NCBI GenBank assembly: GCA_964016885.1
Contig: CAXHJY010000267.1
Location: forward strand, 15,676-79,675
Reading direction: 5' to 3'
DNA length: 64,000 bases
DNA from: Eledone cirrhosa
Lineage: Eukaryota
The notes under the pieces were generated by a model. That model saw only the letters and a program-made list of their open reading frames with translations, was not told the origin of the DNA and ran no database searches. This document shows positions 15,601-63,800 of the stretch, in pieces (position 1 is the stretch's first letter; every line of letters begins with the position of its first letter). The position numbers and the translations under genes were made by a program.

Positions 15601-18600
15601 CCTATAGGATCTCCTACAGCTAGATAAACCCGAGTCAATACCAGGTGAGTGGTGTATATGTCCTATAGTATCTCCTACAGCTAGATAAACCCTGGTCAAT
15701 ACCAGGTGAGGGTGTATATGTCCTATAGTATCTCCTACAGCTAGATAAATCCTGGTCAATACCAGGTGAGAGGGTGTATATGTCCTATAGTACCTCCTAC
15801 AGCTAGATAAACCCTGGTCAATACCAGGTGAGGGTGTATATGTCCTATAGTATCTCCTACAGCTAGATAAACCCTGGTCAATACCAGGTGAGAGGGTGTA
15901 TATGTCCTATAGTACCTCTTACAGCTAGATAGACCCTGGTCAATACCAGGTGAGGGGGTGTATATGTCCTATAGTACCTCCTACAGCTAGATAAACCCTG
16001 GTCAATACCAGGTGAGAGGGTGTATATGTCCTATAGTACCTCCTACAGCTAGATAAACCCTGGTCAATACCAGCTTAGGGTGTATATGTCCTATAGTACC
16101 TCCTACAGCTAGATAAACCCTGGTCAATACCAGCTTAGGGTGTATATGTCCGATAGTACCAGGTTAGGGTGTATATGTCCTATAGGATCTCCTACAGCTA
16201 GATAAACCCGAGTCAATACCAGGTGAGTGGTGTATATGTCCTATAGTACCTCCTACAGCTAGATAAACCCTGGTCAATGCCAGGTTAGGGGGTGTATATG
16301 TCCTATAGTACCTCCTACAGCTAGATAAACCCGAGTCAATACCAGGTGAGTGGTGTATATGTCCTATAGGATCTCCTACAGCTAGATAAACCCTGGTCAA
16401 TACCAGGTGAGAGGGTGTATATGTCCTATAGTATCTCCTACAGCTAGATAAACCCTGGTCAATACCAGGTGAGGGGGTGTATATGTCCTATAGTACCTCC
16501 TACAGCTAGATAAACCTTGGTTAATACCAGGTTAGAGGGTGTATATGTCCTATAGTACCTCCTACAGCTAGATAAACCCTGGTCAATACCAGGTGAGGGT
16601 GTATATGTCCTATAGTATCTCCTACAGCTAGATAAATCCTGGTCAATACCAGGTGAGAGGGTGTATATGTCCTATAGTACCTCTTACAGCTAGATAAACC
16701 CTGGTCAATACCAGGTGAGAGGGGGTATATGTCCTATAGTACCTCTTACAGCTAGATAAACCCTGGTCAATACCAGGTGAGAGGGTGTATATGTCCTATA
16801 GTACCTCTTACAGCTAGATAAACCCTGGTCAATACCAGGTGAGAGGGTGTATATGTCCTATAGTACCTCCTACAGCTAGATAAACCCTGGTCAATACCAG
16901 GTGAGGGTGTATATGTCCTATAGTACCTCTTACAGCTAGATAGACCCTGGTCAATACCAGGTGAGAGGGTGTATATGTCCTATAGTATCTCCTACAGCTA
17001 GATAGACCCTGGTCAATACCAGGTGAGAGGGTGTATATGTCCTATAGTACCTCCTACAGCTAGATAAACCCTGGTCAATACCAGGTGAGAGGGTGTATAT
17101 GTCCTATAGTACCTCCTACAGCTAGATAGACTCTGGTCAATACCAGGTGAGGGGGTGTATATGTCCTATAGTACATCTTACAGCTAGATAAACCCTGGTC
17201 AATACCAGGTGAGAGGGTGTATATGTCCTATAGTACCTCTTACAGCTAGATAAAGCCTGGTCAATACCAGGTGAGAGGGTGTATATGTCCTATAGTATCT
17301 CCTACAGCTAGATAAATCCTGGTCAATACCAGGTGAGAGGGTGTATATGTCCTATAGTACCTCCTACAGCTAGATAAACCCTGGTCAATACCAGGTGAGG
17401 GGGTGTATATGTCCTATAGTACCTCCTACAGCTAGATAAACCCTGGTCAATACCAGGTGAGGGGGTGTACATGTCCTATAGTATCTCCTACAGCTAGATA
17501 AATCCTGGTCAATACCAGGTGAGGGGGTGTATATGTCCTATAGTACCTCCTACAGCTAGATAAACCCTGGTCAATACCAGGTGAGAGGGTGTATATGTCC
17601 TATAGTATCTCCTACAGCTAGATAGACCCTGGTCAATACCAGGTGAGGGGGTGTATATGTCCTATAGTATCTCCTACAGCTAGATAAATCCTGGTCAATA
17701 CCAGGTGAGGGTTGTATATGTCCTATAGTACCTCCTACAGCTAGATAAACCCTGGTCAATACCAGGTGAGGGTGTATATGTCCTATAGTATCTCCTACAG
17801 CTAGATAAATCCTGGTCAATACCAGGTGAGAGGGTGTATATGTCCTATAGTACCTCTTACAGCTAGATAAACCCTGGTCAATACCAGGTGAGAGGGTGTA
17901 TATGTCCTATAGTACCTCTTACAGCTAGATAGACCCTGGTCAATACCAGGTGAGGGGGTGTATATGTCCTATAGTACCTCCTACAGCTAGATAAAGCCTG
18001 GTCAATACCAGGTGAGAGGGTGTATATGTCCTATAGTATCTCCTACAGCTAGATAAACCCTGGTCAATACCAGGTGAGAGGGTGTATATGTCCTATAGTA
18101 TCTCCTACAGCTAGATAAATCCTGGTCAATACCAGGTGAGAGGGTGTATATGTCCTATAGTACCTCCTACAGCTAGATAAACCCTGGTCAATACCAGGTG
18201 AGGGGGTGTATATGTCCTATAGTACCTCCTACAGCTAGATAAACCCTGGTCAATACCAGATGAGGGGGTGTATATGTCCTATAGTATCTCCTACAGCTAG
18301 ATAAATCCTGGTCAATACCAGGTGAGGGGTGTATATGTCCTATAGTACCTCCTACAGCTAGATAAACCCTGGTAAATACCAGGTGAGAGGGTGTATATGT
18401 CCTATAGTACCTCATACAGCTAGATAAAGCCTGGTCAATACCAGGTGAGAGGGTGTATATGTCCTATAGTATCTCCTACAGCTAGATAAATCCTGGTCAA
18501 TACCAGGTGAGAGGGTGTATATGTCCTATAGTACCTCCTACAGCTAGATAAACCCTGGTAAATACCAGGTGAGAGGGTGTATATGTCCTATAGTACCTCC

Positions 18601-21487
18601 TACAGCTAGATAAACCCTGGTCAATACCAGGTGAGAGGGTGTATATGTCCTATAGTACCTCATACAGCTAGATAAATCCTGGTCAATACCAGGTGAGAGG
18701 GTGTATATGTCCTATAGTACCTCCTACAGCTAGATAAACCCTGGTCAATACCAGGTGAGAGGGTGTATATGTCCTATAGTACCTCTTACAGCTAGATAGA
18801 CCCTGGTCAATACCAGGTGAGGGGTGTATATGTCCTATAGGATCTCCTACAGCTAGATAAACCCTGGTCAATACCAGGTGAGAGGGTGTATATGTCCTAT
18901 AGTACCTCCTACAGCTAGATAAACCTTGGTCAATACCAGGTGAGAGGGTGTATATGTCCTATAGTATCTCCTACAGCTAGATAAACCTTGGTTAATACCA
19001 GGTTAGAGGGTGTATATGTCCTATAGTACCTCCTACAGCAAGATAAACCCTGGTCAATACCAGGTTAGGGGGTATATGTCCTATAGGATCTCCTACAGCT
19101 AGATAAACCCTGGTCAATACCAGGTGAGGGGGTATATGTCCTATAGGATCTCCTACAGCTAGATAAACCCTGGTCAATACCAGGTGAGAGGGTGTATATG
19201 TCCTATAGTACCTCCTACAGCTAGATAAACCTTGGTCAATACCAGGTGAGAGGGTGTATATGTCCTATAGTATCTCCTACAGCTAGATAAACCTTGGTTA
19301 ATACCAGGTTAGAGGGTGTATATGTCCTATAGTACCTCCTACAGCAAGATAAACCCTGGTCAATACCAGGTTAGGGGGTATATGTCCTATAGGATCTCCT
19401 ACAGCTAGATAAACCCTGGTCAATACCAGGTGAGGGGGTATATGTCCTATAGGATCTCCTACAGCTAGATAAACCCTGGTCAATACCAGGTGAGAGGGTG
19501 TATATGTCCTATAGTATCTCCTACAGCTAGATAAACCCTGGTCAATACCAGGTGAGAGGGTGTATATGTCCTATAGTACCTCCTACAGCTAGATAGACCC
19601 TGGTCAATACCAGGTGAGGGGGTGTATATGTCCTATAGTACCTCCTACAGCTAGATAAACCCTGGTCAATACCAGGTGAGAGGGTGTATATGTCCTATAG
19701 TACCTCCTACAGCTAGATAGACCCCTGGTCAATACCAGGTGAGGGGGTGTATATGTCCTATAGTACATCTTACAGCTAGATAAACCCTGGTCAATACCAG
19801 GTGAGTGGTGTATATGTCCTATAGTACCTCCTACAGCTAGATAAACCCTGGTCAATACCAGGTGAGAGGGTGTATATGTCCTATAGTATCTCCTACAGCT
19901 AGATAAACCCTGGTCAATACCAGGTGAGAGGGTGTATATGTCCTATAGTACCTCCTACAGCTAGATAAACCCTGGTCAATACCAGGTTAGAGGGTGTATA
20001 TGTTCCTATAGTACCTCCTACAGCTAGATAAACCCTGGTCAATACCAGGTGAGAGGGTGTATATGTCCTATAGTATCTCCTACAGCTAGATAAACCCTGG
20101 TCAATACCAGGTGAGGGGTGTATATGTCCTATAGGATCTCCTACAGCTAGATAAACCCTGGTCAATACCAGGTGAGGGGTGTATATGTCCTATAGTATCT
20201 CCTACAGCTAGATAAACCCTGGTCAATACCAGGTGAGAGGGTGTATATGTCCTATAGTATCTCCTACAGCTAGATAAACCCTGGTCAATACCAGGTGAGA
20301 GGGTGTATATGTCCTATAGTACCTCCTACAGCTAGATAAACCCTGGTAAATACCAGGTGAGAGGGTGTATATGTCCTATAGTACCTCCTACAGCTAGATA
20401 AACCCTGGTCAATACCAGGTGAGAGGGTGTATATGTCCTATAGTACCTCCTACAGCTAGATAAACCCTGGTCAATACCAGGTGAGAGGGTGTATATGTCC
20501 TATAGTATCTCCTACAGCTAGATAAACCCTGGTCAATACCAGGTGAGAGGGTGTATATGTCCTATAGTATCTCCTACAGCTAGATAAACCCTGGTCAATA
20601 CCAGGTGAGAGGGTGTATATGTCCTATAGTACCTCCTACAGCTAGATAAACCCTGGTCAATACCAGGTGAGAGGGTGTATGTCCTATAGTACCTCCTACA
20701 GCTAGATAAACCTTGGTTAATACCAGGTGAGAGGGTGTATATGTCCTATAGTATCTCCTACAGCTAGATAAACCCTGGTCAATACCAGGTGAGAGGGTGT
20801 ATATGTCCTATAGTACCTCCTACAGCTAGATAAACCCTGGTCAATACCAGATGAGAAGGCGTATGTCCTATAGTATCTCCTACAGCTAGATAAACCCTGG
20901 TCAATACCAGGTGAGAGGGTGTATGTCCTATAGTACCTCCTACAGCTAGATAAACCCTGGTCAATACCAGGTGAGAGGGTGTATATGTCCGATAGTACCA
21001 GGTTAGGGGGTGTATATGTCCTATAGGATCTCCTACAGCTAGATAAACCCTGGTCAATACCAGGTGAGTGGTGTATATGTCCTATAGTACCTCCTACAGC
21101 TAGATAAACCCTGGTCAATACCAGGTGAGAGGGTGTATATGTCCTATAGTATCTCCTACAGCTAGATAAATCCTGGTCAATACCAGGTTAGAGGGTGTAT
21201 ATGTCCTATAGTACCTCCTACAGCTAGATAAACCTTGGTCAATACCAGGTGAGAGGGTGTATATGTCCTATAGTACCTCCTACAGCTAGATAAACCCTGG
21301 TCAATACCAGGTGAGGGGGTGTATATGTCCTATAGTACCTCCTATAGCTAGATAAACCCTGGTCAATCCCAGATGAGGGGGTGTATATGTCCTATAGTAC
21401 ATCCTACAGCTAGATAAACCCTGGTCAATACCAGGTGAGGGGGTGTATATGTCCTATAGTACCTCCTACAGCTAGATAAACCCTGGC
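673..21487. repeat. 62-bp satellite array (~20.8 kb, roughly 335-340 monomers) with higher-order duplications
   Basis: Unit CAATACCAGGTGAGAGGGTGTATATGTCCTATAGTACCTCCTACAGCTAGATAAACCCTGGT. Variants are 60-62 bp, plus ~30-bp truncated monomers. Identical ORF blocks recur at offsets of 1659, 2398, 6527 and 306 bp. Confidence 0.98.
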
Positions 21488-22437
21488 CAGAATTCTCTCA
21501 CTTCTATCTGTTCAAACCAGCTGTATCTGGCCAGAATTCTCTCACTTCTTTCTATTCAAACCAGCCAGAATTCTCTCCCCTCTTTCTGTTCAAACCAGCT
21601 GTATCTGGCCAGAATTCTCTCCCCTCTTTCTGTTCAAATCAGCTGTATCTGGCCAGAATTCTCTCCCCTCTTTCTGTTCAAACCAGCTGTATCTGGCCAG
21701 AATTCTCTCCCCTCTTTCTGTTCAAACCAGCTGTATCTGGCCAGAATTCTCTCCCCTCTTTCTGTTCAAACCAGCTGTATCTGGCCAGAATTCTCTCCCC
21801 TCTTTCTGTTCAAACCAGCCATATCTGGCCAGAATTCTCTCACCTCTTTCTGTTCAAGCCAGCCATATCTGGCCAGAATTCTCTCACTTCTTTCTGTTCA
21901 AGCCAGCCATATCTGGCCAGAATTCTCTCACTTCTTTCTGTTCAAGCCAGCCATATCTGGCCACAATTCTCTCACCTCTTTCTGTTCAAACCAGCTGTAT
22001 CTGGCCAGAATTCTCTCACTTCTTTCTGTTCAAGCCAGCCATATCTGGCCAGAATTCTCTCACCTCTTTCTGTTCAAACCAGCTGTATCTGGCCAGAATT
22101 CTCTCACTTCTTTCTCTTCAAACCAGCCATATCTGGCCAGAATTCTCTCACCTCTTTCTGTTCAAACCAGCCATATCTGGCCAGAATTCTCTCACTTCTT
22201 TCTGTTCAAGCCAGCCATATCTGGCCAGAATTCTCTCACCTCTTTCTGTTCAAACCAGCTGTATCTGGCCAGAATTCTCTCACTTCTTTCTCTTCAAACC
22301 AGCCATATCTGGCCAGAATTCTCTCACCTCTTTCTGTTCAAACCAGCCATATTTGGCCAGAATTCTCTCACCTCTTTCTGTTCAAACCAGCCATATCTGG
22401 CCAGAATTCTCTCGCCTCTTTCTGTTCAAACCAGCCA
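21484..22437. repeat. 44-bp satellite (~21 copies)
   Basis: Unit GGCCAGAATTCTCTCACCTCTTTCTGTTCAAACCAGCCATATCT; copies start at 21607 and 21651. Confidence 0.95.
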
Positions 22438-41313: not shown

Positions 41314-42066
41314 ACCACTTTACAGTGTGGACTGGGTACTTTTTGTCGTGACACCTACACAACCACTTTACAGTGTGGACTGGGTACTTTTTGTCATGAC
41401 ACCTACATGACCACTTTACAGTGTGGACTGGGTACTTTTTGTCATGACACCTACATGACCACTCTACAGTGTGGACTGGGTACTTTTTGTCGTGACACCT
41501 ACACAACCACTTTACAGTGTGGACTGGGTACTTTTTGTCGTGACACCTACATGACCACTTTACAGTGTGGACTGGGTACTTTTTGTCGTGACACCTACAC
41601 AACCACTTTACAGTGTGGACTGGGTACATTTTGTCGTGACACCTACACAACCACTTTACAGTGTGGACTGGGTACATTTTGTCGTGACACCTACACAACC
41701 ACTTTACAGTGTGGACTGGGTACTTTTTGTCGTGACACATACACAACCACTTTACAGTGTGGACTGGGTACTTTTTGTCGTGACACCTACACAACCACTT
41801 TACAGTGTGGACTGGGTACTTTTTGTCGTGACACCTACACAACCACTTTACAGTGTGGACTGGGTACTTTTTGTCGTGACACCTACACAACCACTTTACA
41901 GTGTGGACTGGGTACTTTTTGTCGTGACACCTACACAACCACTTTACAGTGTGGATTGGGTGCTTTTTGTTGTGTCACCTACACAAGCACTTTTCATGGT
42001 GGACTGGGTACTTTTTGTTGTGTCACCTACACAACCACTTTTCAGTGTGGACTGAGTACTTTTTGT
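41314..42066. repeat. 48-bp satellite (~15 copies)
   Basis: Unit ACCACTTTACAGTGTGGACTGGGTACTTTTTGTCGTGACACCTACACA; explains the 16-aa periodic ORFs. Confidence 0.95.
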
Positions 42067-42074
42067 CAGACATA

Positions 42075-42876
42075 TAATGATATAATAATGAAATTATTGT
42101 GTACAGTGCTCAGGTGCACTACAACTCATCAAAGGTGCATGTATAGTACATAGAATAATGTACTAATGTCAGGAAAATGAACAGTGTAACAGTCATGATT
42201 TACACACAGATACATGTATGCGTGTGTATGGAGGGGGGATCTCAGGAAGCATGGAGGTTTTAAAGGATGCAGTGTCTCAACAGCTAACAACTGATGCAGG
42301 TAGTTTGCTCCATGGAGGTTTTAAAGGATGCAGTGTCTCCACAGCTAACAACTGATGCAGGTAGTTTGTTCCAAGGAGGTTTTAAAGGATGCAGTGTCTC
42401 GACAGCTAACAACTGATGCAGGTAGTTTGTTCCATGGAGGTTTTAAAGGATGCAGTGTCTCGACAGCTAACAACTGATGCAGGTAGTTTGTTCCATGGAG
42501 GCCTTAAAGGATGCAGTGTCTCCACAACTAACAACTAATGCAGGCAGTTTGTTCCATGCTTCAGCAACTTTGAGCGTAAAAAAATATTTCCGAAAGTCAT
42601 GGGAGCTGTGCTGTTTTCTGACTTTGTGGGCATGTCCACGTGCGATAGACACATGGAATTCAAAAAGGTGCTCAGGATTGTTGTTGGAAAGATGGTTAAT
42701 CATTTTGTGGGTGTCTACCAAGTCAGTTGCCAGGCGTCGGAGCTTCAATGTATCCATGCCCAGGGCAGCAAGGCGCTCAAAGTATGGTAGATGCCTTATG
42801 GAGGGTATTCGCTTGGTTGCACGACTCTGAACAGTTTCCAGGAGGTCAATGTTCTGAGCAAGATAGGGGTTCCAGA
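42075..42876 (-). mobile_element. Second, 5'-truncated copy of the CR1/L2-group LINE with an internal 61-bp x5 tandem
   Basis: VWNPYLAQNIDLLETVQSRATKRIPSIRHLPY...VAEAWNKLP matches the ORF2 C-terminus at 35071-35490. The 3' UTR matches 34797-34905. Confidence 0.92.
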
Positions 42877-47345: not shown

Positions 47346-47414
47346 GTCCCTCGCAGTATTCTTCTATAAAATTATTGTAAAGCTGCTTTTTTTCCATTTA
47401 ATATTTAAAAAGGT

Positions 47415-48558
47415 GTAATAAATGTTTCTACTTTTGGCACAAGGCCAGCAATTACCCCAGTGTATTACTGGTACTTTATTTTATCAACCCTGTAATAATT
47501 GTTTCTACTTTTGGGGGCACAAGGCCAGCAATTACCCCAGTGTATTACTGGTACTTTATTTTATCAACCCTGTAATAAATGTTTCTACTTTTGGCACAAG
47601 GCCAGCAATTACCCCAGTGTATTACTGGTACTTTATTTTATCAACCCTGTAATAATTGTTTCTACTTTTGGGGGCACAAGGCCAGCAATTACCCCAGTGT
47701 ATTACTGGTACTTTATTTTATCAACCCTGTAATAAATGTTTCTACTTTTGGCACAAGGCCAGCAATTACCCCAGTGTATTACTGGTACTTTATTTTATCA
47801 ACCCTGTAATAATTGTTTCTACTTTTGGGGGCACAAGGCCAGCAATTACCCCAGTGTATTACTGGTACTTTATTTTATCAACCCTGTAATAATTGTTTCT
47901 ACTTTTGGGGGCACAAGGCCAGCAATTACCCCAGTGTATTACTGGTACTTTATTTTATCAACCCTGTAATAATTGTTTCTACTTTTGGGGGCACAAGGCC
48001 AGCAATTACCCCAGTGTATTACTGGTACTTTATTTTATCGACCCTGTAATAACTGTTTCTACTTTTGGCACAAGGCCAGCAATTACCCCAGTGTATTACT
48101 GGTACTTTATTTTATCAACCCTGTAATAAATGTTTCTACTTTTGGCACAAGGCCAGCAATTACCCCAGTGTATTACTGGTACTTTATTTTATCAACCCTG
48201 TAATAATTGTTTCTACTTTTGGGGGCACAAGGCCAGCAATTACCCCAGTGTATTACTGGTACTTTATTTTATCAACCCTGTAATAATTGTTTCTACTTTT
48301 GGGGGCACAAGGCCAGCAATTACCCCAGTGTATTACTGGTACTTTATTTTATCAACCCTGTAATAATTGTTTCTACTTTTGGGGGCACAAGGCCAGCAAT
48401 TACCCCAGTGTATTACTGGTACTTTATTTTATCAACCCCGTAAGGATGAAAGGCAAAGTCAACCTCGGCGGGATTTGAACTCAGATCATACAGGGCCGTA
48501 ACTCTGTGCTTCAAAGCATGGCGTCCGACCCTCTACCGATACTGCCAATCCACCGCTC

Positions 48559-52719: not shown

Positions 52720-54660
52720 AGTGCATAGCTCGGAGATAAGAGAGTCACTTCATGTAGAGCTGCTAATTCTCTAAATTGAGAGATCACAGCTCTGATACTA
52801 TGGACATGTGGTTAGAATGTCTCAGGAAAGAATCTCTGAATTGAGAGACCACAGCTCTGATACTATGGACATGTGGTTAGAATGTCTCAGGAAAGAATCT
52901 CTGAATTGAGAGATCACAGCTCTGATACTATGGACATGTGGTTAGAATGTCTCAGGAAAGAATCTCTGAATTGAGAGATCACAGCTCTGATACTATGGAC
53001 ATGCGGTTAGAATGTCTCAGGAAAGAATCACTGGATTGAGAGATCACAGCTCTGATACTATGGACATGTGGTTAGAATGTCTCAGGATAGAATCTCTGAA
53101 TTGAGAGATCACAGCTGTGATACTATGGACATGCGGTTAGAATGTCTCAGGAAAGAATCTCTGAATTGAGAGATCACAGCTCTGATACTATGGACATGCG
53201 GTTAGAATGTCTCAGGATAGAATCTCTGAATTGAGAGATCACAGCTGTGATACTATGGACATGCGGTTAGAATGTCTCAGGAAAGAATCTCTGAATTGAG
53301 AGATCACAGCTCTGATACTATGGACATGTGGTTAGAATGTCTCAGGAAAGAATCTCTGAATTGAGAGATCACAGCTCCGATACCATGGACATGTGGTTAG
53401 AATGTCTCAGGAAGGAATCTCTGGATTGAGATATCATAGCTCTGATACTATGGACATATGGTTAGAATGTCTCAGGAAAGAACCTCTGAATTGAGAGATC
53501 ACAGCTCCGATACTATGGACATGTGGTTAGAATGTCTCAGGAAGGAATCTCTGGATTGAGATATCACAGCTCTGATACTATGGACATGTGGTTAGAATGT
53601 CTCAAGAAAGAATCTATGGATTGAGAGATCACAGCTCTGATACTATGGACATGTGGTTAGAATGTCTCAGGAAAGATTCTCTGAATTGAGAGATCACAGC
53701 TCTGATACTATGGACATGTGGCTAGAATGTCTCAGGAAGGAATCTCTGGATTGAGATATCACAGCTCTGATACTATGGACATGTGGTTAGAATGTCTCAA
53801 GAAAGAATGTCTCAAGAAAGAATCTCTGAATTGAGAGATCACAGCTCTGATACTATGGACATGTGGTTAGAATGTCTCAGGAAAGATTATCTGAATTGAG
53901 AGATCACAGCTCTGATACTATGGACATGTGGCTAGAATGTCTTGGGAAAGAATCTCTGAATTGAGAGATCACAGCTCTGATACTATGGACATGTGGTTAG
54001 AATGTCTAGGGAAAGAATCTCTGAATTGAGAGATCACAGCTCTGATACTATGGACATGTGGTTAGAATGTCTCAGGAAAGAATCTCTGAATTGAGAGACC
54101 ACAGCTCTGATACTATGGACATGTGGTTAGAATGTCTCAGGAAAGAATCACTGAATTGAGAGATCACAGCTCTGATACTATGGACATGTGGTTAGAATGT
54201 CTCAGGAAAGATTCTCTGAATTGAGAGATCACAGCTCTGATACTATGGACATGTGGTTAGAATGTCTCAGGAAAGATTCTCTGAATTGAGAGATCACAGC
54301 TCTGATACTATGGACATGTGGTTAGAATGTCTCAGGAAAGAATCACTGAATTGAGAGATCACAGCTCTGATACTATGGACATGTGGTTAGAATGTCTCAG
54401 GAAAGAATCTCTGAATTGAGAGATCACAGCTCTGATACTACAGACATGTGGTTGGAATGTCTCAGGAAAGAATCGCTGGACAGATTTTATGGGCAAAACC
54501 AGGGATAGACCTCGAGCAAGATGGTTGGATAACATCCATGAGCTTTGTGGGTCTCACTTGGGAGATCTAGCTGGATCAGTTGGAGACAGTTGCTTCTGAC
54601 AGGACCCACTGGAGGGAGCGTTTAAGGACTCTGCCCCCATGACCCTCTCAGGAGAGTATC
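52720..54660 (+). mobile_element. RTE-clade LINE 3' remnant with an internal 65-bp satellite (~26 copies, 52775-54475)
   Basis: VHSSEIRESLHVELLIL*IERSQL*YYGHVVRMSQERI (repeated), then AGQILWAKP...RPRARWLDNIHEL...VASDRTHWRERLRTLPP. Confidence 0.88.
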
Positions 54661-54854
54661 GGCAACATGTCCAATCTCAAATATAACAATACTAATTATT
54701 TTATAATCAAGATGGTATTTATAATTTAGCAAAATATTTTCACATAAAATTATGCGGGAATATTTCAAAGTTAAATTGAAAGCCTTGGGTGGGTTTGTTT
54801 CATAGAACCAGAGCTGCTTTTGACCAGGTTGGCCTCAATACCTGGATTCAACAG

Positions 54855-56000
54855 TAGACTGAAATAAAGGACATGAGACCATCAGGAAGGGCAAACATAG
54901 ATGGACAAACCATGTCCCTTGTTTCAGAGACAACAGCTGGACAATTAGAGTGACATATTGGACACCACGGTGAAAAAGAACTAGAGGGTGGTCAAAGGCC
55001 AGATGGGCTGACTGGAATAAAGGACATGAGACCATCAGGGAGGGCAAACATAGATGGACTGACCATGTCCCTTGTTTCAGAGACAACAGCTGGACAATTA
55101 GAGTGACATATTGGACACCACGGTGAAAAAGAACTAGAGGGTGGTCAAAGGCCAGATGGGCTGACTGGAATAAAGGACATGAGACCATCAGGGAGGGCAA
55201 ACATAGATGGACTGACCATGTCTCATCTCTCACAATAGTGAGAGATGGGGGAGAGTGGGACAGACGGAGGCAGTGACAGTGGGAGTTTGGTTCCTTTGTG
55301 TTCGAACCTGGTGTGTATATATATATATGTAGATAAGAGAGAATGAGTAGATTTCTGGAGAACGGTTACAACCGTATTACTCCTGTTATTTTTGGACATT
55401 AGAGTGACATATTGGACAGCAAAGTAGCGGAGGGTGACCAAAGGTCAGATGGCCTGACAAGGTGAAAGATATAATTAAGACCATCGGGAAGGGCAAACAT
55501 AGATGGCCTGACCATGTCCCTTGTTTCAGAGACAACAGCTGGACAATTAGAGTGACATATTGGATAGCAAAGTAGCAGAGGTGGACCAGAGGGTGACTAA
55601 AGGTCAGATGGCTTGACAAGGTGAAAGATATAATTAAGACCATCGGGAAGGGCAAACATAGATGGTCTGACCATGTCCCTTGTTTCAGAGACAACAGCTG
55701 GACAATTAGAGTGACATATTGGACAGCAAAGTAGCGGAGGTGGACCAGAGGGTGACTAAAGGTCAGATGGCTTGACAAGGTGAAAGATATAATTGGGACC
55801 ATCGGGAAGGGCAAACGTAGATGGTCTGACCATGTCTCTTGTTTCAGAGACAACAGCTGGACAATTAGAGTGACAGAGTGGACACCAAAACAGTAGAAGT
55901 AAACCAGAGGGCAGCCAAAGGCCAGATAGCACAATGATCTGACCCACAAGGCCCAATATGGGCAAAGATAGGAAGCAGGAGAGATTAACTTGGGAGGGAT
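54855..56000 (+). mobile_element. RTE-clade LINE 3' remnant with 153-bp and 159-bp tandem units, interrupted at 55224-55395
   Basis: Unit reads TIREGKHRWTDHVPCFRDNSWTIRVTYWTPR*KRTRGWSKARWAD. Unit markers are at 54878/55031/55184 and 55480/55639/55798. Confidence 0.82.
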
Positions 56001-56248
56001 TCTTCATGAGGAATAAGAAGGCCCTGACATTTGGATTTGGGGTCTCAGAAGGGTTAAAGTTGCTGGACCCAATGGAAATGAAATGACAAAGGTACGCAAC
56101 TAATTGGCAAGAAACTGTGCAGTTGTAGACCTGTCCAACCCACGCAGACAAGGGAATGATGATGATGATGATGATGATGATGATTAAAGGTGGGGGTGGG
56201 GTGGGGGGGGGGTGTTGTTGCTGTTTAGCTTTTAGTGAAGGTTTGTTC

Positions 56249-56412
56249 ATGGCTCTGTGGTTAAGGTGTTCGGCTAATGATTGTAAGCATGTGAGTTCAA
56301 ATCCCGCGACTGTGTCAGCCTTGTTGCATGTATTGTATCACATTGGATCTCCCTGAGAACTATGTCCATGGAAAATGTGTCTGTGGAATACTCAGCCACT
56401 TGCACTTATGTT
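56249..56412 (+). mobile_element. tRNA-derived SINE, second family, degenerate
   Basis: A-box TGGCTCTGTGG and B-box GAGTTCAAATCC, with no complete cloverleaf. Confidence 0.6.
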
Positions 56413-56489
56413 ACTGGACCTGCTACCTTTTAAAATATCTATTGTATGTCTGTATGTGTCTATTATCTCTCTCTTGTTGATTCTTGTAC

Positions 56490-56491
56490 TG

Positions 56492-56523
<32 letters not shown>

Positions 56524-58264
56524 TGTATGTATATATCTATACATATATGTATATATATATATATACATACATATATATATACACATATGTATATATATAT
56601 ATATACATATATACATACATATATGTATATATATATATATACATATGTATGTATATATATATATATATATACATATATGTATATATATATATATATACAT
56701 ACATACATATATATACATATGTATATATATATACATATATATATACATATATGTATATATATATATATACATATATATATATACATATATACATACATAT
56801 ATGTATATATATATACATATATACATACATATATGTATATATATATACACATATACATACATATATGTATATATATACACATATACATACATATATGTAT
56901 ATATATATACACATATATATATACATATATACATACATATATACATACATATATGTATATATATATACACATATATATACATATATACATATATATATAT
57001 AGATACATATATGTATATATATATACATACATATATGTATATATATATACATACATATATGTATATATATATACTTACATATATGTATATATATATACAC
57101 ATACATATATACATATATAAATACACATACATATATACATATATAAATACATACATATATGTATATATACATATATGTATATATATATACACATATATGT
57201 ATATATATATACACATATACATACATATATACATATATAAATACATACATATATGTATATATATATACATACATATATGTATATATATATACATACATAT
57301 ATGTATATATATATACACATATACATACATATATACATATATAAATACATACATATATGTATATATATATACATACATATATGTATATATATATACATAC
57401 ATATATGTATATATATATACACATATACATACATATATACATATATAAATACATATATATATATATTTCAAATGAACTAGAATTAAACTGAAAAATAAAT
57501 TCGAAATTTTTATACTAAAATTAAATTAAATTAATATATATATATTATATATATTATATATATTATATATATATATATATATATATCAGGGAAAAAAAGG
57601 GAAAATAACAAAAACAAATTTATGAGAACAGAATAAAATTTTCAAAGAAATAAAAAAGAAATAAAAATAAAAAAACGAAAATGAAATTGTTTTGAAAATT
57701 TTAATTTTTTTTTTTGAAAATTTATTTTTTTAATAATTAATTTTTCTCTAAATTACCTTTAGTTAAAACAGATTTTGTTGTTGTTGTTGTTGGTGGTGTT
57801 ACTGTTGTTTTTGTATATGAGGTTGTTTTCTTTTGTGTGTGTATATATATATATACATATATATATATGGTTAAATAATTGCTATATATTATATATGTAT
57901 GTGTATATGTTTATATGTGTATATATATGTGTGTGTTTATATATGAGTGTTTTTAAATATATAAATATACATTTATATGTATATATTTATACATACATAT
58001 ATATATATATACATATATATTTATATACATATATATTTATATATATATTTTCATATACATATATATTTATATATATATTTTCATATACATATATATTTAT
58101 ATATATATGCATATACATATATATTTATATACATATACATATATATATATATACATATACATATATATACATATACATATATATACATATACATATACAT
58201 ATATATATACATACATATACATATATGTATATTTATATATACATATACATACATTTATATATAC

Positions 58265-58296
<32 letters not shown>

Positions 58297-58748
58297 ATAT
58301 TTATATACATATACATATATATATATTTATATATACATATACATATATTTATATATACATATATATATATTTATATATACATATATTTATATATACATAT
58401 ACATATATTTATATACACATATATATACATTTATATATATATATATATATACATTTATATATATATATATATATACTTTTTTTTTACATTTATATATACA
58501 TATATATATATTTATATATATATACATATACATATATTTATATTTATATATACATATACATATATTTATATTTATATATACATATATATATATATATATA
58601 TACATATATTTATATATATATATACATATATTTATATATATATACATATACATATACATATATTTATATATATAGATATACATGCATACATATATACATA
58701 CATATGTATATATATACACACATTTATATGTATATATTTATACACATA

Positions 58749-58779
<31 letters not shown>

Positions 58780-58870
58780 GTATGTATATCTGTATGTGTG
58801 TATCTGACTATGTTTGTATGCAGATATCTGTACATGTCTCTATTTGTTGCTGTTGTTGTTGTTGTTGTTG
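56490..58870. repeat. (TA)/(TACA)n microsatellite and low-complexity region
   Basis: Low-complexity sequence. Confidence 0.95.
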
Positions 58871-59074
58871 TTTAAGCCCCAGGCCAGATATCAACCTTAT
58901 AACCTTCACAGGCCTTCCAAACCATGACCATCTCATCTGAAATATTTTTCATCTTATTTATTTATTTATATATTTATTTTGCCTAATTTTTTTTTTTTTT
59001 TTTTTTTTTTTTTTGCATTCCGAAAAGCAGATTGTGTAATAATGATGATGATGATGATGATAATAACAATAATA

Positions 59075-60150
59075 ATAATAATTTCTACTATAAGCACAAG
59101 GCCAATTTTAAGGAGAGGGGAAAGTAGATTAAATTTACCCCAGTGCATTACTGGTACTTTATTTTATAGACCTCCTGGACGAAATAATAATTGTTTCCAC
59201 TTTAGCCACAAGGCCAGCAATTACCCCAGTGTATTACTGGTACTTTATTTCATCTACCCTGTAATAATTGTTTCCACTTTAGCCACAAGGCCAGCAATTA
59301 CCCCAGTGTATTACTGGTACTTTATTTCATCTACCCTGTAATAATTGTTTCTACTTTAGGCACAAGGCCAGCAATTACCCCAGTGTATTACTGGTACTTT
59401 ATTTCATCTACCCTGTAATAATTGTTTCTACTTTAGGCACAAGGCCAGCAATTACCCCAGTGTATTACTGGTACTTTATTTTATCTACCCCGTAATAAAT
59501 GTTTCTACTTCAGGCACAAGGCCAGCAATTACCCCAGTGTATTACTGGTACTTTATTTTATCTACCCTGTAATAAATGTTTCTACTTTTGGCACAAGGCC
59601 AACAGATTTGAAAAAGAGAGCGGAAAGTCGATTAAACCGACCCCCAGTGGGTGACTGGTACTTTATTTTATCGACCCCAGTAAGGCTGAAAGGCAAAGTT
59701 AACCTCGGCGGGATTTGAACTCTGAACGCAAAGGGACGCAACTCTATGCTGCAATGCAAAGCATGGTATCTGATGCTCTACCGATTCTGCCAATCCACCG
59801 CCTTTAATGATAATAAATGTTTCTATTTTAGGCACAAGGCCAGCAATTACCCCAGTGTATTACTGGTACTTTATTTTATCAACCCCATAAGGATGAAAGG
59901 TAAAGTTAACCTCGGCGGGATTTGAACTCTGAACGCAAAGGGACGTAACTCTATGCTGCAATGCAAAGCATGGTATCTGGTGCTCTACCGATTCTGCCAA
60001 TCCCCCGCCTTTAATGATAATAATGGTTTCTGGTTTAGACAAATGGCCAACAATATTTGGGAGGGGGAAAGTCGATTAAATGGACCTATATTTTATCAAC
60101 CCCATAAGGATGAAAGGAAAATCTAACCTTAGTGGGATTTGAACTCAGAA
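59075..60150 (-). mobile_element. SINE cluster: tail fragment, ~5 tandem 80-bp tails, two complete SINEs and a partial one
   Basis: Heads GGCGG.GGATTGGCAGAATCGG at ~59780-59802 and ~59988-60010, each with a B-box and the family core. Confidence 0.88.
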
Positions 60151-60167
60151 TATATATATATATATAT

Positions 60168-60295
60168 ATAAAGTTGTAGTTCCTGTCTGTTTGTTTGTTC
60201 ACGAACTCCTCCTATGGTTTTCGAGATAGACCCCCCATAACCATATATATTCTGAAAAATGGGTGAAACGCAGCAAGGTGCGGGTAATTCGGCTA

Positions 60296-60297
<2 letters not shown>
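60168..60297 (+). mobile_element. Very short Helitron-like element
   Basis: TATAAAGTTGTAG..TGTCTGTTTGTTTG 5' end; CGCAGCAAGGTGCG hairpin followed by CTAG/T at 60293-60297. Confidence 0.55.
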
Positions 60298-60338
<41 letters not shown>

Positions 60339-60586
60339 CAGGTACTATTGCAGTAAAAGGATGACAAATGAAACGAAACGAACTAATTTTTTCTTTAACC
60401 AGTATATTTCCACATAATATTTCTATGTTAATACCCCCTTTTCAAATGAAAAACGAAAAATGACGCGTTCTCCTCTAACTGATATTTCCTACATAGGAAA
60501 AGAGGGGTTTTACCCTGAAATATTATAATGAAATATACTGTGTAAAAAAACAACATTATTTTGTCATCCTTTAACCAAATACCCCC
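60339..60586. mobile_element. TIR MITE in (TA)n, Tc1/mariner-like
   Basis: Inverted pairs AAAGGATGACAAA/TTTGTCATCCTTT and CAGTATATTT/AAATATACTG, with TA flanks. Confidence 0.6.
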
Positions 60587-60619
<33 letters not shown>

Positions 60620-60943
60620 CTCTTTGTCTCTCTCTCTCTTTAATCATCTCTCATTTGTCTTTCGAGGCAACTACTAACTATATTATCCCATCAGCTGTCT
60701 CTTCCTCTATGCTTTCCTTTCTTTCCTCTTTCTTCAGTAGTTTAAAAAAATTTTTTTAACTGTTATATTGATGCCATGTATTTTTTCAAGCTGTATTACA
60801 TGCACCCTCTCTATTGTATGTTCTATATATTTTTCTCATGTTCTCAATATTAGGGTATAAATATTGAGTTTTTGTCATATATTACTCACTACCATGACTG
60901 AATCTTAACCATCTACTATATCAGGGTATGCCATGCATCATCT

Positions 60944-61010
60944 TATTTTATCTGATGAGGACGTACTGTTGAAGATAACTCAGTACCTCTGAAATATGTA
61001 TAATAAAATA
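60944..61010 (+). ncRNA. Type I hammerhead ribozyme motif (canonical core)
   Basis: TATTTTAT-CTGATGA-GGACGTACTG-loop-CAGTACCTCT-GAA-ATA-TG-TAT-A|ATAAAATA: 8-bp helix I and helix II with 9 of 10 pairs. Confidence 0.75.
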
Positions 61011-61050
61011 TACTTGATCACAAGAATATCTATTTTGTTAATATTTTGAA

Positions 61051-61086
<36 letters not shown>

Positions 61087-61182
61087 AAGTATTTCTGTAG
61101 AAAAGGTAAAGGGAATGGAAAGAAGAGTGCTCTATGTATAGTAAAGAGCTATTTAATTACATAATAAACAACATAATATAAT

Positions 61183-61240
61183 TATTCCATTACCAAAGGT
61201 TTCAGGAATCAAATATCTGGCCCATTCATCAGATGAAATA
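61183..61240 (-). ncRNA. Type I hammerhead ribozyme motif (canonical core)
   Basis: Minus strand TATTTCAT-CTGATGA-(imperfect helix II)-GAA-ACC-TTT-GGT-A|ATGGAATA. Confidence 0.65.
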
Positions 61241-61325
61241 GTTAAATAATGTTTCTGTAAAGATCGTCTAGTTTCATGAAATGTTTGGTAATTAAATAAT
61301 TATATTGTGTTGTTTATTATGTAAT

Positions 61326-61374
<49 letters not shown>

Positions 61375-61378
<4 letters not shown>

Positions 61379-62133
61379 GTTTCTACTTTAGGCACAAGGC
61401 CAGCAATTACTCCAGTGCATTACTGGTACTTTATTTTATCGACCCCGTAAGGATGAAAGGCAAAGTCAACCTCTGCGGGATTTGAACTCAGATCGTAAAG
61501 GGACGTAACTCTATGCTGGAAAGCATGGCGTCCGACCCTCTACCGATACTGCCAATCCAAAATAATTGTTTCTACTTTAGGCACAAGGCCAGCAATTACC
61601 CCAGTGCATTACTGGTACTTTATTTTATCGACCCCGTAAGGATGAAAGGCAAAGTCAACCTCTGCGGGATTTGAACTCAGATCGTAAAGGGACGTAACTC
61701 TATGCTGGAAAGCATGGCGTCCGACCCTCTACCGATACTGCCAATCCAAAATAATTGTTTCTACTTTAGGCACCAGGCCAGCAATTACCCCAGTGCATTA
61801 CTGGTACTTTATTTTATCGACCCCGTAAGGATGAAAGGCAAAGTCAACCTCTGCGGGATTTGAACTCAGATCGTAAAGGGACGTAACTCTATGCTGGAAA
61901 GCATGGCGTCCGACCCTCTACCGATACTGCCAATCCAAAATAATTGTTTCTACTTTAGGCACCAGGCCAGCAATTACCCCAGTGCATTACTGGTACTTTA
62001 TTTTATCGACCCCGTAAGGATGAAAGGCAAAGTCAACCTCTGCGGGATTTGAACTCAGATCGTAAAGGGACGTAACTCTATGCTGGAAAGCATGGGGTCC
62101 AACCCTCCACCGATACTGCCAATCCACCACCCT
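61375..62133 (-). mobile_element. Four near-identical head-to-tail SINE copies (189-bp period)
   Basis: AATTGTTTCTAC at 61375, 61564, 61753 and 61942; each copy retains A- and B-box. Confidence 0.95.
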
Positions 62134-62164
<31 letters not shown>

Positions 62165-62170
<6 letters not shown>

Positions 62171-62390
62171 GAAAGTGAACAACACAAAATATAACTACTC
62201 CATTACCAAACGTTTTAGGATCCCAGACAATATTAATATATGTCTGGATCGTTCATCAGACGTACATTATTATTGTCTGGGATCCAGAAACCTTTGGCGA
62301 TGGAGTAGTTATATTTTGTGTTGTTTACTTTCTAATTAAATAGCTCTGTTTTACACATAGAGCACTCTTTTTTCCTCCGCTTTTTCTTTA
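62165..62390. mobile_element. Penelope-like remnant with a ~70-bp inverted repeat and a degenerate hammerhead
   Basis: Arms at 62165-62232 and 62270-62338. Minus strand reads CTGATGA...GATCCAGACA/TGTCTGGGATC..AAAAC..GGTA. Same family as 61115-61330. Confidence 0.55.
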
Positions 62391-62402
62391 GAATTACCTA
62401 AC

Positions 62403-62434
<32 letters not shown>

Positions 62435-62435
62435 T

Positions 62436-62564
62436 TTTATTTTATAGAAGGAGCTTCTACAGGACTAGTACTGTTTCATTCAGATGAAATCTTCAGGAGC
62501 TTCCTGAAGATTTCATCTGAATGAAACAGTACTAGTCCTGTAGAAGCTCCTTCTATAAAATAAA
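62436..62564. repeat. Perfect 63-bp-arm palindrome (3-nt loop) containing a hammerhead-like core
   Basis: Left arm 62436-62498, loop GCT, right arm 62502-62564. Contains CTGAAGA-T-TTCA-TC-TGAA-T-GAAAC-AGTACTA-GTC. Confidence 0.9.
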
Positions 62565-63169
62565 CATTTTTTACTCTGCCATGTATTGAGTACCTTACTT
62601 ACTGTGGTTATCCCCGACTCAACCCGGGACCTACGTATATATATATATATATATATATTCTCAACCTGATTAGTTCTATCGTTGCTTTGGTATATTATTG
62701 TGTGTTAGTTTCGCCTACCACAATGTTCGATTTGTCAAGCTATTTAAACGTATACTATTACTCTAAGGCCCTATCTTATTGAGTGCTTTGCTAACTCATC
62801 ATTTCATATAAGTAGGCCGAATTTACTTGCAAACCGCCAGAGATTCGATTTTACTGATTTCCAATTATATATATATATATATATAGGTATATATAGGTAT
62901 ATATTACCACAGCAGAGGTCCAATGAGCTTTTGATTCCAGAGTCGGGCCAGATCAATACTGATTGGATGTGGAGCTGATCAATAGCGAAATGCACGTCAC
63001 TACTCAGTAAACATAATGAAGGCATAACAATTCGTCCTTTTAATATTATATTTACACTCTGTTTAGTTCTACACCTCGTTTCAGACGGGAAACTAATCAT
63101 TAAGTGCTCACCTAGGTCAACCTACAGTAACAGCATGTTACACTCCCTGGATATATATATATATATATA

Positions 63170-63800
63170 CTGAGGATGAAGAACTCAGAGCTGTACGGGA
63201 GCCTCCCAAAAGTCAGCTCGAGAGTAGCCCAGAGAAGACTGAGGTTAGCTGGACATGCTCACCGACATCCAGAGTTGACATTGCCCTCAGTGCTCCTGTG
63301 GGAGCCCCTACACAGACACACTAGGTTAGCTGGACATGTTCACTGACATCCAGAGTTGACATTGCACTCAGTGCTCCTGTGGGAGCCCCTACACGGACAT
63401 ACTAGGTTAGCTGGACATGCTCACCGACATCCAGAGTTGACATTGCACTCAGTGCTCCTGTGAGAGCCCCTACACGGACATACTAGGTTAGCTGGACATG
63501 TTCACTGACATCCAGAGTTGACACTGCACTCAGTGCTCCTGTGGGAGCCTCTACACGGACACACTAGGTTAGCTGGACATGCTCACCGACATCCAGAGTT
63601 GACATTGCACTCAGTGCTCCTGTGGGAGCCCCTACATGGACACACTGGAAGGGGAAGACCAAGGTTAACGTATGTTGATGCCCTAAGGACAGACACTGGT
63701 CTGTTGGAGACGCAGGACATGGCAGCGATAATGGGGGACAGAGACTGCTGGAGAGAACTCGGGAATTTTACCCGCCTTAGGGACATGACCAGCAATTTGA
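63170..63800 (+). mobile_element. RTE-clade LINE 3' remnant with an in-frame 81-bp x5 tandem
   Basis: MKNSELYGSLPKVSSRVAQRRL[RLAGHAHRHPELTLHSVLLWEPLHGHT]x5GRGRPRLTYVDALRTDTG...GDRDCWR. Units start at 63242, 63323, 63404, 63485 and 63566. Confidence 0.88.

Follow-up and report, generated by a model that had tools for sequence, protein, structure and literature searches.

Tandem arrays from the C-terminal region of RTE-type LINEs have a few joints in common across many insertions in Eledone cirrhosa

Results

The 64,000-nucleotide stretch of Eledone cirrhosa DNA analyzed here (the window; positions 15,676 to 79,675 of contig CAXHJY010000267.1) contains copies of three families of RTE-type long interspersed nuclear elements (LINEs), all on the forward strand and all bearing tandem arrays of a segment from the C-terminal part of the coding region. 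The arrays were delimited with Tandem Repeats Finder (TRF), which found all four that a preliminary description, made from the sequence alone, had reported; the peptides quoted there translate as given. The family A copy (52720-54652), identified by translation, by mapping to the long copy L045 and through its protein relatives, is 5′-truncated and has lost its tail. Its array (52768-54478; TRF and translation) has 26 units of 65 bp, one of which is 80 bp long, covering nucleotides -33 to +31 around the glycine-histidine (GH) codons of the RxxGH motif. Family B is represented by two pieces, recognized by TRF and translation and separated by a spacer of about 170 bp (55223-55390), an unrelated sequence with no match to the family B reference. 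The 5′ piece (54835-55222) holds 2.4 units of 153 bp (54857-55222), and the 3′ piece (55391-56184) holds 3.0 units of 159 bp (55430-55911) and ends in a (GAT)n tail (56156-56184). Because the 153- and 159-bp units are 82% alike and have in common five states that are absent from four other family B copies, the two arrays are of one lineage and probably belong to a single interrupted insertion. The family C copy (63165-63780), placed by mapping, is 5′-truncated and was inserted after a (TA)n run; its array (63242-63646; TRF and translation) has 5.0 units of 81 bp, covering nucleotides -9 to +71 around the GH codons. A stop codon is common to units 2 and 4, showing later expansion in place.

As previously described, the LINE reading resumes 3′ of the 65-, 159- and 81-bp arrays, and no meaningful similarity at the nucleotide level was found between units of different lineages (best hits of 8-19 nt). 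The proposal that all the arrays lie over R(W/L)xGH just upstream of RGRP was correct as to the C-terminal segment; the 153- and 159-bp units, however, take in the RGRP-equivalent and read RWxDH, not GH. The back-joints of the window arrays recur in short-read contigs of run X1, which may be the source sample, and the presence of the same joints in read contigs rules out an assembly artefact; in run X5, no back-joint was present among the matches listed, and runs X11, X12 and X14 contained too little element sequence to be of use. None of the listed data sets containing the elements was RNA, which is no evidence for or against expression.

The RTE clade is characterized by a single open reading frame (ORF) of about 1,000-1,100 amino acids (aa), with an apurinic/apyrimidinic endonuclease and a reverse transcriptase, and by a C-terminus with RxxGH and RGRP motifs and no cysteine finger, followed by a very short 3′ untranslated region (UTR) and a simple-repeat tail. 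The reverse transcriptase domain PF00078 was detected in the family C copy L024 (E 5e-23), and the protein relatives of families A and C also have a reverse transcriptase domain; the proteins of the nearest relatives of C (identity up to 75%) and of one relative of A are 893-1,092 aa long and combine PF14529/PF03372 with PF00078. The RxxGH and RGRP motifs are found at the C-terminus, there is no cysteine finger, and a very short 3′ UTR is followed by a tail of (TA)n in C, (GAA)n in A and (GAT)n in B. Set against the generally known features of the clade, the parents of the arrays fit RTE-type LINEs. Family A, whose nearest named relatives are fish reverse transcriptase proteins, is presumably Rex3/Expander-like. 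An expansion of RTE-BovB in cephalopods is described in the available text of PMC10294476.

Most LINE copies are 5′-truncated to a few hundred bases, and family C has at least 5,604 copies in which the GH motif is accompanied by a second motif, 110 nt closer to the 3′ end. The median 5′ ends of copies lie 24-137 nt upstream of GH. The distance between GH and the 3′ end is 220-245 nt in families A to D, and a homologous segment and a common distance from the 3′ end are therefore inseparable within RTE. Six of 31 single family C copies (L131-L160) are 5′-truncated within 6 nt of each other (reference 1381-1386), perhaps through microhomology with (TA)n targets. At one family B locus (L373, minus strand, ~30-270), an apparent coding exon adjoins the element, and some arrays may therefore be intronic.

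We counted arrays using exact motifs and set period ranges, and all of the counts are lower bounds. In family C, there were 549 GH-to-GH pairs at period 65-95, for which a pattern giving one match per locus gave 70 loci, whereas a control motif 110 nt 3′ of GH gave 10 pairs in 2 loci. Family A had 80 loci at period 51-81 and 243 matches at period 106-136, of which 100 were listed and some correspond to two 65-mers. In a sample of 270 copies not picked for arrays, duplications were most frequent in the two bins around GH; in family A, they were found in 8/32 and 8/37 copies in these bins and in 0/46-50 in the 3′ bins. The position bias at GH is real per locus after correction for coverage. The non-uniformity anticipated in the preliminary description is therefore borne out for loci (70 against 2, and the family A bins), although most of these loci are not separate births, as detailed below. 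The alternative offered there, that only 3′ ends survive truncation, accounts for the broad C-terminal location but not for the shortage in the last ~130 nt, which are best covered by copies and yet nearly array-free.

Arrays that include GH were also found in other RTE lineages, with units of 80, 90 and 107 bp, in a 600-kb sample made up of arbitrary small-chromosome sequence and locus flanks; in the same sample, units of 117 and 136 bp lay just downstream of GH. By hand count, 11 copies not selected for arrays in a fourth family, D, have the 80-bp class. Of the 12 back-joints among the 15 read-contig matches listed (of 506), 11 fell in the GH region. In family C, a 111-bp joint (21 matches) marks another array site, located 100-210 nt upstream of GH (for example at L184, L216 and L229), and both arrays are present in some elements. 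About 38% of copies extend to this site, where the duplication rate is of the same order as at GH. A special role of GH as a birth hotspot is unproven, since the upstream joint has also spread, no common fold was detected, and the same behavior is seen in short interspersed nuclear elements (SINEs) and other repeats. In a class-level test, 6 of 8 classes include GH against 1.4-1.6 expected (P ~0.001), but the classes share breakpoints and may derive from each other, so that the test overstates the effect; by hand count, ~4 of 11 founders outside the three discovery arrays include GH against ~2 expected. Automatic element calling was imperfect: one calling merged some family D loci, and another broke a D array up into six pieces, missed two arrays of family C and pooled the 81- and 96-bp classes, which inflates its locus-level P. 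Family B was thinly sampled (34 unselected copies, none arrayed; its five array hits were chosen).

Microhomology at the joints is 0-3 nt. The shared structure suggested in the preliminary description was not supported: with 25 shuffles per 80-nt window, no common RNA fold was found at GH in the four families examined, and z did not fall below -1.6 in the windows that start at -40 and 0. In-frame selection, with active elements bearing a repeated C-terminal domain, was rejected since the periods 65, 70, 80, 83, 100, 107, 136 and 148 are not multiples of three and units contain stops; the periods 81, 96, 111, 123, 153 and 159 are divisible by three.

The joint class of the 81-bp array in the window was present in 55 of the 70 family C array loci genome-wide, and the 65-bp class in 64 of the 80 family A loci listed (read by eye). 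At the upstream site, all 21 matches of the 111-bp joint were of one class. The array-bearing family C copies, on the other hand, have 56 distinct 5′ ends among 68, and a single pair of the 70 loci (L179/L180) has the whole flank in common; seven further pairs match in part, at 86-95%. Segmental duplication was rejected, as flanks are not in common except in L179/L180. Different classes occur together in single arrays (L200, L208, L214), with breakpoints in common, and joint classes may have been derived from each other. That few joints are common to many insertions indicates that the number of loci reflects spread and that, for the most part, array loci are not separate births. The 65-bp joint was also seen in five contigs labelled as another organism (run X6; L042:1300-1690), representing either an old shared joint or admixture.

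Arrays were found on old, intermediate and youngest 3′ haplotypes. Among copies with the young 3′ haplotype, the old allele 1459C was found in 10 of 11 arrays, as opposed to none of 29 single copies (Fisher P 1e-8), and it was present in 5/5 arrays that are young on both sides against 0/19 single copies. Such two-sided chimeras occur in three joint classes. In family A (19 arrays and 21 single copies, search motifs masked), the divergence between loci was 0.095 for the 65-bp units as against 0.149 in single copies, whereas the 3′ flanks diverged by 0.157 in arrays and 0.149 in single copies (permutation P 0.006). The array copies form no clade in the family A flanks. Within loci, unit divergence was 0.021-0.038, units being most alike inside a locus.

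The arrays are also unevenly distributed in the 3.0-Gb genome. Forty-one of the 70 family C array loci lie on C27, a 22-Mb chromosome that makes up 0.7% of the genome, seven on C887 and one on C1-C9; the first 100 copies on C1 included no family C array. On C27, the 111-bp joint has variant A in 7/7 matches at 3-13 Mb and variant G in 11/11 at 19-22 Mb. Likewise, one family A variant was found in 22/22 loci on C25 against 18/42 elsewhere, the family A clusters on C20 and C28 each have their own variants, and two family B loci 470 kb apart (L374 and L375) have a joint in common. Complex arrays of all kinds number 21-31 per 100 kb on C21, C25 and C27 against 2-4 inside C1 and C3 (two 100-kb samples); the window, array-rich throughout, has 32.8. 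Enrichment is seen on small chromosomes and at the distal ends of C1 and C2 (telomeres and centromeres unmapped). In the 600-kb sample, 62 of 147 arrays belong to classes seen twice or more, mostly non-LINE. The LINE arrays are one example of a process that is both regional and family-wide. The interval 9.2-9.4 Mb of C27 (L291-L310) is 56% tandem repeat and includes 7 kb of a tandemly repeated 117-bp unit that derives from the RGRP region in another RTE lineage.

Discussion

Taken together, the haplotypes, the homogenisation of family A units and the geography point to copying between existing insertions. We consider it fairly likely that rare founder duplications have been transferred to resident insertions, through inter-locus gene conversion or else through the reintegration of circles, and have then expanded in place. 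Under this model, each family would have gained its founder duplication on one or a few occasions, at 0-3 nt of microhomology, through reverse-transcriptase switching, slippage or repair. When a resident copy suffered a break, an array-bearing copy would then serve as an out-of-register template for its repair; alternatively, a circle of units would reintegrate by homology and give an identical product, and the two routes are indistinguishable here. Unequal exchange would expand and homogenise the array. The winning joints would come to lie near GH probably through geometry, as ~230-320 nt of shared sequence would be left 3′ of the joint, which would yet be near enough to the 3′ end to survive 5′ truncation. 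The process would be fastest where recombination is presumably frequent, on small chromosomes and at the ends of chromosomes. None of this implies a function for the arrays. A bolder formulation, possible although we lean against it, is that the joints behave as selfish replicators that do not transpose: local gene conversion would carry them into copies of dispersed repeats, in waves that pass region by region along small chromosomes, and the length of homology needed in repair would fix the winners at ~230-320 nt from the 3′ end, so that unrelated RTE lineages would converge on one and the same coding segment.

Several observations weigh against spread by conversion. The array count on C27 (41/70) stands without a single-copy denominator for that chromosome, and the distance decay of the 81-bp units is weak over C27 (rho 0.24, P 0.026) and absent from its 3-13 Mb core (rho 0.05, P 0.26). 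In family C, array-bearing copies are shorter than a C1 sample of single copies (P 1e-4), and in 6/68 the start falls within a unit, both of which are also expected from retrotransposition of array-bearing RNA. Family D units match their own subfamily, the array copies being close in their flanks too (0.044-0.068), and the 123-bp class of family A shows little homogenisation between loci (0.139 vs 0.163). The 117- and 136-bp units leave shorter 3′ sides than the geometric step would want, and no donor-recipient pair or new event was observed.

Conceivably, a few source elements gained an internal duplication and retrotransposed it, the daughters then expanding it locally; we regard this as unlikely. 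Identical joints across many insertions would follow from it, as would the shorter 5′ extent and the starts inside a unit; the family D arrays are mostly of one subfamily, and the LTR12 case described in the available text of PMC3389668 provides a precedent. Yet the array copies span old to youngest 3′ haplotypes and form no clade in the family A flanks, two-sided chimeras are found in three joint classes, and many units are out of frame or have stops. Variants, moreover, sort by region, whereas new LINE insertions are not expected to remain within one chromosome region.

The idea that the GH region is a true birth hotspot, where each copy independently undergoes re-priming by reverse transcriptase, or DNA slippage, at the same points, can draw on the winning classes of families A, C and D, which all include GH, and on single arrays including GH in two more lineages (90 and 107 bp). 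The class-level excess (6/8 against 1.4-1.6; P ~0.001), the 11 of 12 listed read-contig back-joints at GH, the match of family D units to their own subfamily and the SINE arrays, whose usual start at the SINE 5′ end suits template jumping, also argue for it. We nevertheless find it decidedly unlikely: classes of the same family have breakpoints in common and are found together in an array, so they are not independent, founders outside the discovery arrays include GH in ~4/11 cases against ~2 expected, microhomology is 0-3 nt with no common fold, and foreign units and regional variants are left unexplained. Repeated re-priming, as suggested in the preliminary description, similarly fails to explain the regional clustering, the region-specific variants and the foreign units in young copies, and the second, upstream joint has spread too. 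It is highly improbable that nothing special is involved, that is, only 3′ survival in a generally unstable region, or segmental duplication. The median 5′ ends 24-137 nt upstream of GH, the ten-fold regional excess of all arrays and the 62/147 arrays in recurring classes, most of them not LINE, would suit such an account, but the best-covered last 130 nt are nearly array-free, flanks are not in common and exact joints recur. Survival of 3′ ends in an unstable region is contradicted as a full explanation and is still a contributing factor.

The comparisons that follow refer to the available parts of the texts cited. The closest known system is that of the SINE-derived satellites sSat1-3 of squamate reptiles (PMC10702118). 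In both systems, arrays of an internal part of a retroposon are still attached to the element ends, one or a few unit types occur at many loci with units more alike across loci than the parent, and sub-variants alternate (PMC10702118). The reptile satellites are biased to chromosome ends (PMC10702118); here, small chromosomes and the distal ends of C1 and C2 are enriched. The parent, however, is a SINE in sSat and LINE coding sequence in several RTE-type lineages here, and the foreign units between resident flanks and the region-sorted variants that we describe do not figure in the available part of the sSat account, whose authors invoke unequal recombination and concerted evolution, the arrival of units at new loci being untested there (PMC10702118). 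The LINE arrays work like sSat, yet they are not members of that group, being LINE-ORF-derived. On the Drosophila X chromosome, Rsp-like repeats have likewise colonised resident dispersed repeats, the 1.688 clusters, with inter-locus conversion and circular DNA proposed as routes; there, a foreign satellite enters at microhomology (10.1101/846238), whereas the LINE units already belong to the element that receives them. In maize CRM1TR and CRM4TR, similar regions of two related retrotransposons became tandem independently and conversion shapes the arrays, but these are long terminal repeat (LTR) elements, with few loci and little or no movement between them (PMC3648361). Human multilocus tandem repeats derived from transposable elements also show positional hotspots in the element consensus and the same repeat at several loci; in that case, 185/5,932 clusters are multilocus, there is no genomic hotspot and the LTR12 case is ascribed to transposition (PMC3389668). 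No precedent for an internal duplication was found in the available part of PMC2718515. In the literature outside subscription papers and supplements, no description was found of LINE-ORF arrays that spread from one insertion to another, in cephalopods or otherwise; the supplements of the sSat paper may bear on what is new here.

Work on satellite DNA evolution has yet to explain how one unit reaches many scattered loci. The LINE subfamily markers that flank the arrays are built-in tags, with which conversion, transposition and repeated birth are separable locus by locus. Array counts per consensus position overstate birth hotspots, and repeat ages and subfamily trees in such regions should be read with caution, as those of mosaics. 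If the joints were indeed selfish replicators, they would provide thousands of markers for the range and rate of ectopic conversion in a genome.

Other tandem repeats of the window

SINE-derived arrays of the same general kind were found with TRF at 59185-62126 on the forward strand (5.4 units of 77 bp, 2 of 207 bp and 4 of 189 bp), and a further one lies at 47414-48443. SINE arrays, with periods of 70-222 bp, mostly begin at the SINE 5′ end, suggesting that template jumping may have been the founder step. A 62-bp satellite of ~330 copies with higher-order structure occupies positions 674-21486 and is not among the recurring classes of other loci. Units of 48 bp (41314-42067), 61 bp (42250-42558) and 44 bp (21483-22437) are found elsewhere as 41, 15 and 2 arrays, respectively, and the same spreading may affect these non-LINE repeats.

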